DNA of 32,000 nucleotides. It comes from Alkalilimnicola ehrlichii MLHE-1. GTDB taxonomy: Bacteria > Pseudomonadota > Gammaproteobacteria > Nitrococcales > Halorhodospiraceae. Under the pieces are notes generated by a model. It worked only from the letters and a program-made list of their open reading frames with translations. It searched no databases and had not been told where the DNA came from. The position numbers and the translations under genes are program-made. This document shows, in pieces, positions 10,775 to 23,149 of this stretch. The stretch's first letter is position 1. Each line of letters begins with the position of its first letter. The DNA is taken from NCBI RefSeq assembly GCF_000014785.1, contig NC_008340.1, positions 450,001 through 482,000 of the forward strand. Direction: 5' to 3'.

Positions 10775-12226
10775 ATGAGCGCAGTAGTCGACCGACTGGA
10801 CATCGCCCGGCAACGGATACTGGCGCCGGCCGGGTTGGAGGAGCAGCACCTGGAGCAGGCCTTTGCCCGGCTGATGGGCCCGGGCGTCGATGCCGCCGAC
10901 ATCTATTTCCAGAGCGCCCGCAGCGAGGGCTGGGTGATGGAGGACGGCCGGGTCCGTGAAGGCACCCGCGGCATCGACCAGGGCGTGGGCGTGCGGGCGA
11001 TCAGTGGCGAGCAGAGCGGGTTCGCCTACTCGGACGAGATCGTCCTGCCGGCGCTGATGGAGGCCTCGGGCAGCGCCCGTGCCATCGCCCGCAGCGGCCA
11101 GAGCGGCCGGCTGCAGGCCTGGCACCGTGGCGAGGGCCACGCCCTCTATCCCACCGACAACCCCCTGGACGGGCTGAGCGCCGACGACAAGGTGGCCCTG
11201 CTCAAGGCCGTGGACGCCGAGGCCCGGGCCCAGGACCCGCGGGTCGAGCAGGTCATCGCCACCCTCGGTGGCGTCCACGAGACCATGCTCGTCGCCTGCG
11301 CCGACGGCACCCTGGCCGCCGACGTTCGCCCGCTGGTGCGTTTCAACGTCAGCGTCCTGGTCCGCGAGGGCGACCGGCGCGAGAACGGCATGTGCGGGGG
11401 CGGCGGCCGGGTGAGCTACAGCTTCTTCCTCGACCAGGACCGCGCCCTGGGCTATGCCCGCGAGGCCGTCCGCCAGGCCCTGGTCAACCTGGAGGCCGAG
11501 GAGGCCCCGGCCGGCTCCATGCCTGTCGTGCTCGGCCCCGGCTGGCCCGGCGTGCTGCTCCACGAGGCCGTGGGCCACGGCCTGGAGGGCGACTTCAACC
11601 GCAAGGGCACCTCCGCCTTCGCCGGACGCATGGGCGAACGTGTCGCCTCACCGCTGTGCACCGTGGTCGACGACGGCACCCTGGCCAACCGCCGCGGTTC
11701 GCTCAACGTCGACGACGAGGGCACCCCCACCCGCTGCACTACCCTGATCGAAAAGGGCGTACTCAAGGGCTTCATGCAGGACAAGCTCAACGCCCGCCTG
11801 ATGGGCACAGCCTCCACCGGCAACTGCCGGCGAGAATCCTTCGCCCACCTGCCCATGCCGCGGATGACCAACACCTACATGCTCCCCGGCCCCCACGACC
11901 CGGAGGAGATTATCCGCTCGGTGGACCACGGCCTCTACGCCGTCAACTTCGGCGGCGGCCAGGTGGACATCACCTCCGGCAAGTTCGTCTTCTCCGCTAG
12001 CGAGGCCTACCTCATCGAGAAGGGCCGGATCACCACCCCGGTCAAGGGCGCCACCCTAATCGGCAACGGCCCCGACGTCCTCACCCGCGTCAGCATGGTC
12101 GGCAACGACCTGAAACTCGACGGCGGCATCGGCGTCTGCGGCAAGGAGGGCCAGAGCGTCCCGGTCGGCGTGGGCCAGCCGACCCTCAAGGTCGACGCCC
12201 TCACCGTGGGCGGCACCCGCGGCTGA
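10775..12226 (+). CDS. tldD: metalloprotease TldD
   Basis: 483 aa with the [11 protein letters not shown] zinc motif. The TldD-typical C-terminus is [14 protein letters not shown]...[11 protein letters not shown]. Confidence 0.92.
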
Positions 12227-12272
12227 CCCACGCCCACGACCGGCGAGGGCAGCGAACCTGGAAAATGCCGGC

Positions 12273-12475
12273 GGGGGTTGCGGTCGAGGTGGTGCGATGA
12301 TCGGGCCGGGCGACTTTGCGCACCGAGCAACGCAGTAAAAAGGCGGAGAAAAGGCGCGCCTGTCCGAGCGAAGCGAGTTCGCGCCGCCGCCTTTTTACGA
12401 GTAGCGCAGGGGACCCCGAAGGGGTGCGCAAGTGGAGCCCGGCCCGATCATCGCACCACCCCGACCGCAGCCCCC
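12273..12475. repeat. nested-hairpin repeat element, copy A (38-nt arms plus 127-nt core)
   Basis: Arms 12273-12310 and 12438-12475 are inverted repeats, pairing at 36/38 positions plus one G-T. The core 12311-12437 is the reverse complement of 17975-18101 and differs from it at only about 15 of 127 positions, roughly half of them in the few nucleotides at the two core termini. Lies in the tldD-pmbA spacer. Confidence 0.8.
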
Positions 12476-12503
12476 GCAATCAGCGAAGCCAAAGGACAGC
12501 GGA

Positions 12504-13862
12504 ATGACCAATACCGTCACGCACAGCAGTCGTACCTCAGGCCTCCCCGCCAGCGCCGACATGGAGGCCCTCATCCAACAGGCCCTGGACACCGCCCGCA
12601 CCCTGGGCGCCACCGGCGCCGAGGCCGGCCTCGCCTTCGATCTCGGCCTCTCCGTCAACGTCCGCAAGGGCGAAGTCGACACCTTGGAACACCACCGGGA
12701 CCGCGGCCTCAGCGTCACCGTCTACTTCGGCCAGCGCAAGGGCAGCGCCAACACCGCCGACTTCCGCCCCGAATCCATCCGCGAGACCGTCCAGGCCGCC
12801 TGCGACATCGCCCGCTACACCTCCGAGGACCCCGCCCACGGCCTCGCCGACCCCGAACTCATGCCCCGCCAGGTCCCCGAGCTGGACCTGGAACACCCCT
12901 GGGCCCTGAACCCGGAAGAGGCCATCGACCTCGCCCGCCGCTGCGAAGCCGCCGGGCTGGCGGAAAAAGGCATCACCAACTCCGAGGGCGCGGGCGTGGC
13001 CACCCACCACACCCTCCGGGTCTACGGCAACAGCCACGGCTTCCTCGGCCACTACGCCGGCACCCGCCACAGCATGAACTGCGTCATGGTCGCCGGCGAG
13101 GGCGACCACATGCAGCGGGACTACTGGTACACCGTCGACCGCGTCCCCGAGGCCCTGGAACGGGCCGAGGACGTCGGTCGCGAGGCGGCCCGGCGCACCC
13201 TGGCGCGAATGGGCGCCCGCCAACTGGGCACCCGGCGGGTGCCGGTCCTGTTCGCCCCGCCCATGGCCCGGGGACTCATCGGCCACTTTATCGGCGCCAT
13301 TCGCGGCGGCGCCCTCTACCGCAAGGCCTCCTTCCTGCTCGACCAGTTGGGCCAGCCGGTCTTCCCGGACTTCGTGCAGATGCGGGAAGAGCCCCACCGC
13401 CCGCGTGGCCTGGGCAGCGTGCCCTTCGACCATGAGGGCGTGGCCACCCGCGAGCGGACATTGGTGCGCGACGGCGTGCTGCAGGGCTACGTGCTGGACA
13501 GCTACTCCGCCCGCCGCCTGGGCATGCAGACCACCGGCAACGCCGGCGGCGTGCACAACCTGGTGGTGGAACCAGGCCCCGACGACCAGGCCGCCCTGCT
13601 CAAGCGCATGGGGACCGGGCTACTGGTCACGGAGATGATGGGGCAGGGGGTTAACCCGGTCACCGGCGACTACTCGCGGGGGGCTACCGGCTTCTGGGTC
13701 GAGGATGGCGAGATCGCCCACCCGGTGCAGGAGATCACCGTGGCCGGCAATCTGCGGGAGATGTACGCCGGACTCACCGCGGTGGGTTGCGACGTGGACC
13801 GGCGCGGCAACATCCACACCGGCTCGCTGCTGGTGGATGCGATGACCGTCGCCGGCGAATGA
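12504..13862 (+). CDS. pmbA: metalloprotease PmbA (TldE)
   Basis: Collinear with E. coli PmbA as I recall it (RKGSANT, ARYTSEDP, GDYSRGATGFWVEDGEI, ITVAGNL). I prefer the ATG at 12504 (AAGGA upstream). The ORF-track start at 12432 lies inside the repeat arm. Confidence 0.9.
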   Translation: MTNTVTHSSRTSGLPASADMEALIQQALDTARTLGATGAEAGLAFDLGLSVNVRKGEVDTLEHHRDRGLSVTVYFGQRKGSANTADFRPESIRETVQAACDIARYTSEDPAHGLADPELMPRQVPELDLEHPWALNPEEAIDLARRCEAAGLAEKGITNSEGAGVATHHTLRVYGNSHGFLGHYAGTRHSMNCVMVAGEGDHMQRDYWYTVDRVPEALERAEDVGREAARRTLARMGARQLGTRRVPVLFAPPMARGLIGHFIGAIRGGALYRKASFLLDQLGQPVFPDFVQMREEPHRPRGLGSVPFDHEGVATRERTLVRDGVLQGYVLDSYSARRLGMQTTGNAGGVHNLVVEPGPDDQAALLKRMGTGLLVTEMMGQGVNPVTGDYSRGATGFWVEDGEIAHPVQEITVAGNLREMYAGLTAVGCDVDRRGNIHTGSLLVDAMTVAGE

Positions 13863-17834: not shown

Positions 17835-17927
17835 GGGCCGCTCCCGGGTTGGGCGGTGACAAGCGAATGATTGCCAGGGCCTGCCTCTAGGGTAGTCGGG
17901 TTTTGCCGCCGGGTCGCTTGCCGGGCC

Positions 17928-18148
17928 GAGGGGTGGTGTTGCTGCCGGGGCGGGGCGGTTAATGCCGTCAGGCCTCCGGATTGCGCACCCCTTCGGGGTC
18001 CCCTGCGCTACTCGCAAAAGAGCGGCGGCGCGAACTCGCTTCGCTCGGACAGGCGCGCCTTTTTTCCGCTCTTTTGCTGCGTTGCTCGGTGCGCAAAAGT
18101 CGGCCTGACGGCATTAACCGCCCCGCCCCGGCAGCAACACCACCCCTC
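17928..18148. repeat. nested-hairpin repeat element, copy B (47-nt arms plus 127-nt core)
   Basis: Arms 17928-17974 and 18102-18148 are perfect reverse complements (47/47). The core 17975-18101 is homologous to the reverse complement of 12311-12437. Lies between the ilvD stop and the dehydrogenase start. Confidence 0.8.
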
Positions 18149-18154
18149 CCCCGG

Positions 18155-20008
18155 TCAGTCCAGCAGGTCCAGGTTTCGCACCGCGCCCTTGTCCGCGCTG
18201 GTGGTCAGCTTGGCGTAGGCTTTCAGGGCCGTGCTGACCTTGCGCTGGCGGGGGGCGGCGGGCTTCCAGGCATCGCGGCCCTTGGCCGCCATGGCCTCGC
18301 GGCGGCGGGCCAATTCCTCGTCGCTGATATCGATGCGGATGCTGCGCTTGGGGATGTCGATGCAGATCCGGTCGCCCGGCTCGATCAGGGCGATGTTGCC
18401 GCCCTCGGCCGCCTCCGGGGAGACGTGGCCGATGGACAGCCCCGAGGTGCCGCCGGAGAAGCGGCCGTCGGTGATCAGCGCGCAGTCCTTGCCCAGGCCG
18501 CGGGACTTGAGGTAGCTGGTGGGGTAGAGCATCTCCTGCATGCCCGGCCCGCCCCGCGGCCCCTCGTAGCGGATGATGACCACATTGCCCTTCTTCACCT
18601 GGCCGCCGAGAATCCCCTCCACGGCGGCGTCCTGGCTCTCGAAGATCACCGCCGGCCCTTCGAAGGTGAGGATGGACTCATCCACCCCGGCGGTCTTCAC
18701 GATGCAGCCCCGCTCGGCCAGGTTGCCGTAGAGCACCGCCAGCCCGCCGTCCTTGCTGTAGGCGTGCTCCAGGGTACGGATGCAGCCGCACTCCCGGTCC
18801 AGGTCCAGTTCTTCGAAGCGGGTGGACTGGCTGAAGGCGGTCTGGCTGGGGACGCCGGCCGGACCGGCCTTGAAGAAGTCGTGCACCGCCGGGTCGTCGG
18901 TGCGTTTGACGTCCCAGCGTTCCAGGGCCTCGGCCAGGGTGTCGCTGTGGACCGTGGGCACGGTGGTGTCCAGCAGGTTGGCCCGGTCCAGCTCGCCGAG
19001 GATGCCCATGATGCCGCCGGCCCGGTGCACGTCCTCCATGTGAAAGAGCGGGGTGGCGGGGGCGACCTTGCAGAGGTTGGGCACCTTCCGGGAGAGCTTG
19101 TCGATGTCGACCATGTCGAACTTGACCTCGCCCTCCTGGGCGGCGGCCAGCAGGTGCAGCACCGTGTTGGTGGACCCGCCCATGGCGATGTCCAGGCTCA
19201 TGGCGTTGCGGAAGGCGGACCGGCTGGCGATGTTGCGCGGCAGGCAGCGCTCGTCGTCCTGCTCGTAGTAGCGCCGGGCCAGTTCCACCACCGTGCGCCC
19301 GGCATCGCGGAACAGGCGCTCGCGGTCGGTGTGGGTGGCCAGCAGCGAGCCGTTGCCCGGCAGGCTCAGGCCCAGGGCCTCGGTGAGGCAGTTCATGGAG
19401 TTGGCGGTGAACATGCCGGAGCAGGAGCCGCAGGTGGGGCAGGCGGAGCGCTCGTAGATGGCCACGTCCTCGTCGGAGACCTCCGGGTTGGCCGCGGCCA
19501 CCATGGCATCCACCAGGTCGGTGGCGATCTCCTCGCCGCTGGCCAGCTTCGTCTTGCCCGCCTCCATGGGCCCGCCGGAGACGAACACCACGGGGATGTT
19601 CAGCCGCATGGCGGCCATCAGCATGCCGGGGGTGATCTTGTCGCAGTTGGAGATGCACACCAGCGCGTCGGCGCAGTGGGCATTGACCATGTACTCCACC
19701 GAGTCGGCAATGATGTCCCGGCTGGGCAGGCTGTAGAGCATGCCGTCGTGGCCCATGGCGATGCCGTCGTCCACGGCGATGGTGTCGAACTCCTTGCCCA
19801 CGCCGCCGGCCTTTTCGATCTCTTCGATCACCAGCTGCCCCAGGTCCTTCAGGTGGACGTGGCCGGGGACGAACTGGGTGAAGGAGTTGGCGACGGCGAT
19901 GATGGGCTTGTCGAAGTCGCCATCCTTCATGCCGGTGGCCCGCCAGAGGGCGCGGGCGCCCGCCATGTTGCGACCGGCGGTGGACGTCTTGGAGCGATAC
20001 TGCGGCAT
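18155..20008 (-). CDS. ilvD: dihydroxy-acid dehydratase
   Basis: 617 aa with the IlvD signatures [12 protein letters not shown] and [11 protein letters not shown]. Full-length collinearity with enterobacterial IlvD. Confidence 0.97.
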
Positions 20009-20107
20009 GGTTGACCTCTGCGTTCGGGATTTCGCGGTTAGCCGTCCATTATTGGGTTTTGCGGGGCTGAGGGGAACCCCTTACCGCCATCGACCAGTGG
20101 GAAAGCC

Positions 20108-20380
20108 GTCACTGCCAGCAAAGCTGGAGTGGCAGTCCAGGGCCTGTGGATCGCCGCGTCGCTGCGCTCCTCGCGATGACGGGGGTGGCACCCCCACCCG
20201 TCACTGCGAGGAGCGAAGCGACGCGGCAGTCCATGCGGCGCCTGGATCGCCCCGGGCCTGCAGCCCTTGCGATGACGGGGGTGGCACCCCCACCGTCACT
20301 GCGAGGAGCGCAGCGACGCGGCAGTCTACCGCTCTGGATCGCCACGGGCCTTCGGCCCTCGCGATGACGGGGAGGGGGTC
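20108..20380. repeat. REP/BIME-like array 1: alternating palindromic modules, about 3 units
   Basis: Recurring modules are GTCACTGCGAGGAGCG(A/C)AGCGACGCGGCAGTC and GGATCGCC(A/C)CGGGCC(TTC/TGCA)G(G)CCCT(C/T)GCGATGAC, joined by the small hairpin GGGGGTGGCACCCCCACC. It is the same family as 22756-23149 in the opposite orientation. Confidence 0.75.
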
Positions 20381-20431
20381 TTCAGCCCGCACCCGCAGGC
20401 CGCGTGGCGGCATCTCCGGCCGCCAGACGTC

Positions 20432-22737: not shown

Positions 22738-22755
22738 GCAAGCGCTGGATTGGCC

Positions 22756-23149
22756 GTCATCGCGAGGGCCGAAGGCTTTCCCCGTCATCGCGAGGGCCGA
22801 AGGCTTTCCCCGTCATCGCGAGGGCCGAAGGCCCGTGGCGATCCATGCGGGGTATGGACTGCCACGTCGCTGCGCTCCTCGCAGTGACGGTGGGGGTGCC
22901 ACCCCCCGTCATCGCGAGGGCCGAAGGCCCGTGGCGATCCAGGGCGGTAGACTGCCACGTCGGCTTCGCCTCCTCGCAGTGACGGTGGGGGCGCTACCCC
23001 CGTCATCGCGAGGGCCGCAGGCCCGTGGCGATCCAGGGCGGTAGACTGCCGCGTCGCTTCGCTCCTCGCAGTGACGGGGGGATGGGTTCGCTCCTCGCAT
23101 TGATGGGTGGGGACGGGTTCGCTCACTCGTAGTGAGTGACGGTGGGGGG
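22756..23149. repeat. REP/BIME-like array 2: two 28-bp half-units, three 94-96-bp full units, then degenerate copies
   Basis: GTCATCGCGAGGGCCGAAGGC starts at 22756, 22784, 22812, 22908 and 23002. Full units add CCGTGGCGATCC...GACTGCC(A/G)CGTCG...CTCCTCGCAGTGAC plus a G/C-tract hairpin. Decayed copies run from about 23085 to 23149. Confidence 0.75.

Follow-up and report, generated by a model that had tools for sequence, protein, structure and literature searches.

A family of non-coding hairpin repeats with a conserved centre and fast-evolving paired arms in intergenic spacers of Alkalilimnicola and Alkalispirillum

Introduction

What is a hairpin of more than 200 nucleotides (nt) doing between tldD and pmbA, two genes transcribed in the same direction in Alkalilimnicola ehrlichii MLHE-1? 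The question is raised by a 32,000-nt stretch of this genome (NC_008340.1, positions 450,001 to 482,000 of the forward strand; the window in what follows), in which a sequence-only reading, made without database searches, had noticed a nested-hairpin element in the tldD-pmbA spacer and had proposed that it belongs to a dispersed family and is not a local terminator. That proposal is borne out here. The element exists in eight copies at seven loci in two genera (Alkalilimnicola ehrlichii and Alkalispirillum), and these copies form a previously undescribed family of non-coding interspersed hairpin repeats, set apart by an inverted conservation pattern: between copies, the cores are 83-99% identical and the arms that enclose them 50-84%.

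Results

A nested hairpin between tldD and pmbA

The two arms of the element in the tldD-pmbA spacer, designated copy A, enclose an asymmetric nested-hairpin core of 125 nt. They had been described as inverted repeats of 38 nt with one G-T and one A-C exception; both exceptions are present, and the arms extend to 41 nt with 95% complementarity. Inside them, TTGCGCACC pairs exactly with GGTGCGCAA (12316-12324/12423-12431) and GTAAAAAGGCGG with CCGCCTTTTTAC (12335-12346/12387-12398), and GGCGCG pairs with CGCGCC around a central loop, confirming the nested pairings that the sequence-only reading had laid out. The joining block GAGCAACGCA (12325-12334) is a nearly exact direct repeat of GAGTAGCGCA at 12399-12408. 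The parts of copy A are as follows, with P2, P3 and P4 denoting its inner stems.

12271-12477, plus strand: copy A, whole hairpin, 207 nt, within the 277-nt tldD-pmbA spacer and sense to transcription from tldD to pmbA
12271-12311, plus strand: left arm, 41 nt, G-rich; 39 Watson-Crick pairs, one U.G and one A.C among 41 pairs
12312-12315, plus strand: left linker GACT, with GAC invariant in 8/8 copies
12316-12324, plus strand: P2 5' strand TTGCGCACC, invariant, though part of the query that retrieved copies C and D
12325-12334, plus strand: joining block GAGCAACGCA, invariant, inside the query that retrieved copies C and D
12335-12346, plus strand: P3 5' strand GTAAAAAGGCGG, in a covarying stem with invariant AAA
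12347-12352, plus strand: A-rich asymmetric bulge AGAAAA, a U-rich tract when read antisense
12353-12358, plus strand: P4 5' strand GGCGCG
12359-12379, plus strand: apical loop CCTGTCCGAGCGAAGCGAGTT, 21 nt, in which TGTCCGAGCGAAGCGAGTT is invariant in 8/8 copies
12380-12385, plus strand: P4 3' strand CGCGCC
12387-12398, plus strand: P3 3' strand CCGCCTTTTTAC, whose T-run gives a terminator-like hairpin-plus-U tract
12399-12409, plus strand: invariant block GAGTAGCGCAG, which includes GTAG
12410-12424, plus strand: small hairpin GGGACCCCGAAGGGG, with an invariant CCCC/GGGG stem; the loop and one upstream base (G/A/C) vary
12423-12431, plus strand: P2 3' strand GGTGCGCAA
12432-12436, plus strand: right linker GTGGA, with GGA invariant in all copies
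12437-12477, plus strand: right arm, 41 nt, C-rich, ending 26 nt short of the pmbA start at 12504

With dinucleotide shuffles as the control for folding energy, the whole of copy A folds at -153 kcal/mol (z = -12 on either strand), and its P3/P4 hairpin, at -18 kcal/mol, is followed by TTTTTACG. The core alone, as RNA, is of unremarkable stability (z = -1.2 to -1.7).

The element also generates long spurious open reading frames (ORFs; 12278..13435 and 12432..13862) and a false N-terminal extension of pmbA, both of which had been anticipated; the pmbA start annotated in a sister A. ehrlichii strain corresponds to window position 12504. When the four open frames of the core were translated, no similar protein was found among 5.8 billion, and gene callers therefore do not call ORFs across the family. 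The sister strain (L001, CP184336.1) encodes an identical TldD, carries both copies present in the window and shows 24 differences from it in the first 17,000 aligned bases. One of the differences between the strains concerns the A.C arm mismatch, which is private to the window strain (A12287 is G in L001). The accession CP184336.1 is listed among genomes of Alkalilimnicola ehrlichii SGAR-12 and MLHE-1 (PMC12509624).

The core recurs in reverse complement at 17975-18101, as had been reported, with 117 nt at 94% on opposite strands and 91% identity across the whole core. Two blocks of the core, 28 and 33 nt long, are each present exactly two times in the window, where shuffles give an expectation of 0.00. 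The earlier reading took the arms to be specific to copy A and the 127-nt core to be the repeated unit, and in doing so overlooked the arms of this second copy, copy B, whose core is flanked by 47 perfect pairs. These arms differ in sequence from those of copy A and reach 56 nt at 93% when their outer part is included. It is the whole hairpin, not the core, that constitutes the unit.

17928-18148, minus strand: copy B, whole hairpin, 221 nt (239 nt with imperfect outer pairs, 17919-18157), in the ilvD-GSDH spacer and sense to transcription from ilvD to GSDH
17928-17974, minus strand: 3' arm in sense orientation, 47 nt, 47/47 Watson-Crick pairs with 18102-18148
17975-18101, minus strand: core, 127 nt, 91% identical to the copy A core, with P3 formed by GCAAAAGAGCGG/CCGCTCTTTTGC
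18102-18148, minus strand: 5' arm in sense orientation, 47 nt, beginning 6 nt past the ilvD stop codon

The 12-bp P3 stem differs between A and B at three pairs, all of them fully compensated, and copy B is likewise a strongly stable fold (z = -12 to -13 across the two copies).

Eight copies and the empty sites of relatives

In addition to copies A and B in the window, a second A. ehrlichii region (L041) carries copies E, F and G in the recG-ubiC, ridA-recG and comF-bioB spacers, respectively. Two contigs of JGI metagenome 3300000447 (Alkalispirillum) carry copy C, upstream of bioB, and copy D, flanked by genes for a membrane subunit and a TorD-type chaperone; copy C' is the counterpart of copy C in an Alkalispirillum mobile isolate (L040). 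Copies C', E, F and G were found in the regions around bioB of A. mobile and A. ehrlichii. Copies C and D came from a metagenome scan with a 20-mer, TTGCGCACCGAGCAACGCAG, that spans the P2 5' strand and the joining block next to it, and the constancy of these 20 columns is in part a consequence of the query. The scan returned 14 loci, comprising two true copies and 12 chance matches in coding sequence, and a metagenome scan with the central 23-mer returned none, copy C differing from that 23-mer at one base and copy D at two. A covariance model, which the sequence-only reading had suggested as a check, was built from all eight copies and recovers each of them at 145-184 bits; scanning of 317 kb plus 63 kb of related DNA yielded no ninth match. 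The ~69 kb of A. ehrlichii sampled contain five copies, and the ~42 kb of the A. mobile isolate one.

Filled and empty sites were compared at four loci. In A. mobile and related metagenome-assembled genomes, whose TldD is 95% identical to that of the window and whose four-fold degenerate sites are 34% diverged from it, the spacers are short and without the element (tldD-pmbA, 22 nt; ilvD-GSDH, 16 nt; ridA-recG, 53 nt; recG-ubiC, 54 nt). The corresponding A. ehrlichii spacers measure 265-320 nt, and the A. ehrlichii copies at these four sites are therefore insertions. For copies A and B, arms included, the 22- and 16-nt spacers of A. mobile imply insertions of ~255 and ~300 nt in the A. ehrlichii lineage. 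No element was found at any site examined in two more distant Alkalilimnicola genomes. The element is thus a small non-coding insertion that is polymorphic between relatives, a trait shared with miniature inverted-repeat transposable elements (MITEs). By eye, the flanks of seven of the eight copies (for G, the downstream flank only) show no consistent direct repeat that would represent a target-site duplication, and the called genes in ~69 kb of A. ehrlichii include no transposase or other coding partner.

These comparisons bear on a different possible origin, in which the hairpin arose locally, spacer by spacer, as an elaborate intrinsic terminator or attenuator. Its centre does contain an A-run, a GC hairpin and a U-run that can be read both ways, AAA/UUU is invariant inside a covarying stem, and the structure sits a few to tens of nucleotides past stop codons. 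Against this, seven unrelated loci in two genera share one 125-nt core with invariant loops, the element is missing from the orthologous spacers of close relatives, and termination does not require most of the length, namely the arms, P2 and the GTAG block. Copies C, C' and G, moreover, are not located at a 3' end; in the comF-bioB spacer they follow a promoter-like site and precede the bioB start codon. A simple terminator scan finds none at copies A or B, where the apical loop exceeds the scan's 3-8-nt limit. As the cores are 83-99% identical, convergent origin of the copies is excluded, and the dispersed, inserted distribution already contradicts this origin. We consider local evolution of a terminator extremely improbable.

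Paired change in the stems and constancy of the loops

Every copy has the same architecture, with arms of 36-47 bp and a total length of ~205-240 bp. The core consists of a 9-bp P2, a 12-bp P3 with an A-run and a U-run, the GC stem P4, an invariant 19-nt apical-loop sequence and a block made of GTAG plus a small hairpin. In a structural alignment of the core and 12 arm pairs across the eight copies, 98.8% of cells are paired, compared with 33-51% in controls in which the pairing was slid. Compensated changes affect 17 pairs (41 cells) against one one-sided change, to G.U, and none of 500 shuffles reaches these values.

Variation is concentrated in particular parts of the structure. Variable columns number 19/24 in the proximal arms and 16/24 in P3, compared with 1/42 in the invariant helices (P2 and three short ones) and 14/50 at unpaired positions. 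The variable unpaired positions are located in the linkers, in the A-rich bulge, at the base of the apical loop, at the lone nucleotide that separates P4 from P3, and at two sites of the small-hairpin block. Within P3, both sides change in 7/12 pairs, and columns 40-42/95-97 are invariant A:U.

Across the full arms, 325 of 337 pairs (96%) are Watson-Crick, seven are G.U on the sense strand, two are A.C and three are other mismatches; transition-type mismatches are therefore G.U on the sense strand in 7/9 cases and A.C in 2/9. Two copies have perfect arms (B, 47/47 pairs; F, 44/44 pairs). The compensated arm changes include transversions as well as mirrored differences in length between the two arms.

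Despite this variability, the arms retain common motifs. When only A and B are compared, the similarity of the arms does not exceed that of shuffles (p = 0.12). Across eight copies, however, motifs recur in register (A, D and E have GATGATCG 8 nt from GAC, and GGGGCGGG(G)CG is found in B, C, E and G), and the arms are accordingly treated as homologous, fast-evolving parts. The closest pair of copies displays the same gradient on a shorter scale. Copies C and C' have one difference over the core and proximal arm pairs (~160 aligned nt), compared with 7 of ~22 positions in the distal arms, where all differences are compensated or wobble; the flanking genes are ~3% diverged, and 8% at four-fold sites.

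Orientation and transcript-level features

Five copies (A, B, D, E and F) are flanked on both sides by co-directional genes, and all of them (5/5) are sense to transcription, an orientation bias that we regard as suggestive only. Since A and B are opposite in orientation and only 5.5 kb apart, orientation tracks transcription and not replication. The hairpin ends 26 nt ahead of the pmbA start, and 20-30 nt ahead of the downstream start in C, C', D and F.

When read in the sense direction, the P3/P4 hairpin has -11.5 to -19.5 kcal/mol and is followed by U3-U5 (located by hand); in the antisense direction, the P4 hairpin has ~ -12.8 kcal/mol and is followed by a U-rich octamer. A promoter scan detected no promoter-like site at copies A or B. 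The linkers and core were also inspected for a kink-turn, a Shine-Dalgarno sequence with a small ORF and a small peptide, none of which is common to all copies. In copy F only (L041 4905-5007), the conserved GGAGG of the right linker has an ATG 8 nt on, opening a 26-codon frame into the recG start (by eye). This frame is probably fortuitous, as the other copies have GATCATC there, without a start codon.

The orientation and covariation bear on a second alternative, in which the element is a domesticated RNA module. The core and ~12-14 proximal pairs would be a functional RNA, the distal duplex a processing stem through which a double-strand-specific RNase (RNase III) would excise it from operon transcripts; the distal arms would then need only to pair, and the loops would bind a protein or another RNA. 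Such a module fits the conservation gradient from core to proximal arm to distal arm (one difference in ~160 nt versus 7 of ~22 between C and C'), the invariant loop blocks adjoining covarying stems, the sense orientation of 5/5 co-directional copies and the preponderance on the sense strand of G.U over A.C arm mismatches (7 versus 2). It fits less well with a core that alone is not unusually stable (z = -1.2 to -1.7), with G.U in only 1/42 variant cells of the core alignment, and with host genes that are functionally unrelated (protease, ilvD, recG, ubiC, bioB and molybdoenzyme chaperone). The scan-based lack of a promoter-like site, the status of the copies as recent insertions absent from sister taxa, and the opposite orientations that the core at comF-bioB has relative to bioB in the two genera also count against it. 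In our judgement, a domesticated RNA module is unlikely.

Inversion of the core at comF-bioB

In the comF-bioB spacer, both genera carry the element. Its core is sense to bioB in Alkalispirillum (C') and antisense in A. ehrlichii (G), and in both genera the base of the hairpin lies 23 nt past a promoter-like -10 hexamer (identified by eye). The simplest reading is a single ancestral insertion followed by inversion of its core between the arms.

This inversion brings in a third alternative, in which the hairpin acts as DNA, copying or repairing itself by fold-back, arm-to-arm templating in rolling-hairpin or cruciform style, with the core flipping between the arms. The stems would stay strictly Watson-Crick, and the loops would be recognition sites for a DNA-binding or single-strand-specific enzyme. 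In its favor are the 41 compensated changes, with transversions and mirrored arm-length differences among them, compared with one wobble, the perfect arms of B (47/47) and F (44/44), the inverted cores of G and C' at the same position 23 nt past the -10 box, and flanks in which no target-site duplication was seen. Both small hairpin loops, in addition, have the form C-GAA-G, which is a very stable type of DNA triloop, and the GTAG block with its imperfect palindrome is REP-like. However, no candidate enzyme gene was seen in the 69 kb of A. ehrlichii sampled, orientation tracks transcription and not replication, the uncompensated A.C persists in the window strain, and ordinary recombination between inverted repeats of 36-47 bp could equally invert the core. 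We therefore hold a DNA-level hairpin of this kind to be quite unlikely. A more specific proposal, that this is a new type of bacterial hairpin element kept or spread by fold-back arm-to-arm DNA templating and surviving within operons in the sense orientation only, strikes us as distinctly improbable. Such templating would nonetheless account for strictly Watson-Crick, copy-specific stems, for the lack of target-site duplication and for the flip/flop of the core at comF-bioB, and in a variant of the proposal the flip may make an orientation-dependent, invertible RNA element.

The comF-bioB spacer is itself unusual. Between two Alkalispirillum genomes (L033 3064-3445 and L040 9623-10000) whose flanking genes are ~3% diverged, it shows ~40-50% mismatches outside three conserved parts, namely the promoter-like boxes, the comF ribosome-binding site and the element core. 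High spacer divergence as a general rule in Alkalispirillum was considered and rejected, as other spacers are 0.45% diverged where genes are 1.6% diverged, and the divergent spacer may be an imported allele.

Other features near the copies

The window and L001 differ by ~0.14% overall, and single-nucleotide polymorphisms (SNPs) are clustered beside both copies on the sense-upstream side only, with 6 in the 290 nt before and in copy A (11998-12287) and 20 in 435 nt beside copy B (18152-18586). Coding SNPs in the two clusters are synonymous in 22/24 cases (tldD, 5/5; ilvD, 17/19), as expected of imported recombination tracts, and the clusters look like such tracts ending at the element.

Strain L001 additionally carries an insertion sequence (IS) of ~1.58 kb with a DDE_Tnp_1_4 transposase (L001 17116-18690, corresponding to about window 17886), which the window strain lacks. 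It is inserted at CTAG, with CTAG duplicated, ~40 nt from the 47-bp arm of copy B (~30 nt from the outer imperfect pairs). The IS was considered as a parent of copy B and rejected, being unrelated to it and inserted beside it. On the same side, the flank of copy B at 17893-17935 (GGGTTTTGCCG...CTTGCCGGGCCGAGGGG) resembles the spacer upstream of ilvD (window 20055-20085; L012 18660-18676), and the A. mobile spacer upstream of ilvD has CTTGCCGGGCCGAGGGG-AAG-CCCCGG immediately past a stop codon. Copy B thus looks as if it were seated in the loop of a small GAGGGG/CCCCTC hairpin module; the same could not be shown for the other copies.

A second repeat with a period of ~94 nt forms clusters at 20147-20386 and 22754-23110, which are inverted relative to each other around a 2.4-kb gene block. 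Its units are long hairpins (for example, TGGATCGCC..CTCGCGATGACGGGGG / CCCCGTCACTGCGAGGAGCGAAGCGACG), and it has only the 11-mer GAGCGAAGCGA in common with the core of copies A and B. The first cluster is also an insertion, given that the A. mobile spacer upstream of ilvD is only 77 nt, and in the second the two A. ehrlichii strains differ by an indel near 22833. In the second A. ehrlichii region, ~1 kb (L041 772-1798) is without a called gene, whereas a VTT-domain gene occupies this place in A. mobile; the covariance model gives no match to the element in this stretch.

Discussion

The reading that we favor, with somewhat better than even confidence, is that of a mobile palindromic repeat family that inserts in spacers and is co-transcribed as a very stable hairpin in operon mRNA, where it may have termination or processing effects on the host. 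Copies would have been inserted into short intergenic spacers as mobile or otherwise copied DNA, after which the stems would be free to change in sequence as long as Watson-Crick pairing is kept, with most loop blocks remaining constant. Because the copies are located inside operons in the sense orientation, a sense element would be expected to be transcribed within the polycistronic mRNA, and the transcript would be predicted to form, shortly before the ribosome-binding site of the following gene, a hairpin of -150 to -190 kcal/mol. A long RNA duplex is the type of substrate that is cut by RNase III and that blocks 3' exonucleases. The most likely effects on the host would be that the internal hairpin-plus-U tract terminates some transcripts and that the long duplex is cleaved or protects 3' ends; either effect would uncouple tldD and pmbA mRNA levels. 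The role as a stabiliser, processing site or attenuator in tldD-pmbA that the sequence-only reading had envisaged is plausible and consistent with the sense orientation, the stem covariation and the sense-strand G.U pairs.

Several observations weigh against this interpretation. The 5/5 orientation bias has a two-sided p of 0.06, with the neighbours E and F perhaps not independent. Weak terminator-like hairpin-plus-U tracts are found in both orientations, so that the bias is not explained by polarity alone and counter-selection of polar antisense insertions is not clearly supported; the negative terminator scan at copies A and B, within its loop limit, is a further point on this side. Neither a partner gene nor target-site duplication nor conserved terminal repeats were found, and mobility is for that reason argued from presence versus absence only. 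The sole whole-genome scan, a search of a genome collection with GACCCCGAAGGGGTGCGCAA, gave eight chance matches in unrelated phyla; as the first base of this 20-mer query is a variable position (G/A/C), the scan is silent on copy number per genome and is not evidence of absence.

Two further points concern how the constancy and the pairing are maintained. Constancy of the loops could partly come from gene conversion among copies and not from selection, given that the cores of B, E and F, which share one genome, are 96-98% alike and those of the positionally orthologous G and C' 90%. The scarcity of G.U (1 versus 41) is unusual for purely RNA-level selection and points to a DNA-level process, and the near absence of wobble intermediates, together with the mirrored arm-length differences, argues for a DNA-level contribution to stem pairing. 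Candidates for such a process are arm-to-arm templating or gene conversion that replaces whole hairpins.

The wider meaning depends on which process holds. If arm-to-arm templating were true, the family would represent an undescribed way of maintaining or moving hairpin DNA in bacteria; if RNA-level selection were true, it would be a mobile cassette that places a processing or termination structure of -150 kcal/mol inside housekeeping operons. On the practical side, false ORFs and false N-terminal extensions arise from the elements, as in pmbA, and short-read assemblies may break at them. Two Logan short-read contigs of A. ehrlichii, L002 (end 9172) and L003 (end 1521), stop at copy A, one within its core and one at the left arm's outer edge.

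Comparison with known systems

The sequence-only reading had not recognised the element as REP, ERIC, a Correia element or any named MITE or non-coding RNA, and the searches made here likewise gave no known family. Rfam 15 gave 0 gathering-score matches in the whole window. In E-value mode, copy A matched only sucC (16 bits versus a threshold of 50) and copy B only plant miRNA-precursor models (56 bits versus 168, both strands alike, which is a generic long-hairpin match); there was no match at copies E, F and G. Plasmid and phage BLAST searches returned nothing, viral-contig scans returned nothing or chance matches only, and no description of such an element was found in the literature.

Correia elements (CREE/NEMIS) and other MITEs are likewise small, non-autonomous intergenic insertions that are co-transcribed and form long RNA hairpins. 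RNase III cleaves the RNA hairpins of Correia elements, and terminators or promoters can be present in them. The terminal inverted repeats of these elements, however, are conserved and match those of a parent IS, and target-site duplications (TA for Correia) accompany them. Membership among MITEs was rejected here, as the terminal arms are the least conserved part and no target-site duplication was seen.

ERIC/IRU and other long enterobacterial elements such as YPAL are imperfect palindromes of ~127 bp or more that occur only in transcribed intergenic regions and are insertion-polymorphic, as is the present family, and they are reported to have an orientation-dependent effect on mRNA stability. 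ERIC differs in being conserved over its full length, without a hypervariable paired outer stem, and its consensus is not known to resemble the hairpin family.

Parvoviral and AAV inverted terminal repeats offer a likeness of form only, that of a long perfect stem around an asymmetric palindromic region in two orientations (flip/flop). Those are viral genome ends generated by terminal resolution and not chromosomal repeats, and the flip described here was seen once, between genera.

Integron attC sites resemble the family in that structure is kept while sequence varies; they are imperfect hairpins situated between genes of the same orientation, and it is the folded single strand that is recognised. 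In attC sites, the conserved part is the hairpin base with its R and L boxes and the variable part is the apex, the reverse of what is seen here, and attC membership was rejected, as the hairpin bases differ between copies and are without RYYYAAC...GTTRRRY boxes. The neighbours of the element are syntenic housekeeping genes in both genera, not cassettes, with no integrase nearby.

REP sequences (repetitive extragenic palindromes) and REPINs, which RAYT tyrosine transposases mobilise, resemble the element in several respects, being non-coding intergenic repeats that are transcribed within operons, form hairpins and are without target-site duplication. In REP sequences, a conserved GTAG precedes an imperfect palindrome, and the element has one block that looks REP-like by inspection, GTAG followed by an imperfect palindrome (12401-12428), in which CGCA...TGCG surrounds the small hairpin; it reads GAGTAGCGCAGGG.ACCCCGAAGGGGTGCG and is invariant except for the dotted base and one loop base. 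REPINs also fold as one long hairpin. The called genes in ~69 kb of A. ehrlichii include no Y1 transposase domain, as would be expected of a RAYT (a Y1 HUH transposase). The present element has one GTAG hairpin and ~210 bp, compared with 20-40 bp for REP and ~100 bp for REPIN, and a REPIN has two inverted REP copies as conserved arms around a variable spacer, on which ground REPIN membership was rejected. REP, ERIC and Correia elements are usually recognised by their conserved ends; the hairpin family reverses this pattern, with invariant loop blocks in its centre and a long closing stem that evolves fast and yet remains almost perfectly paired.

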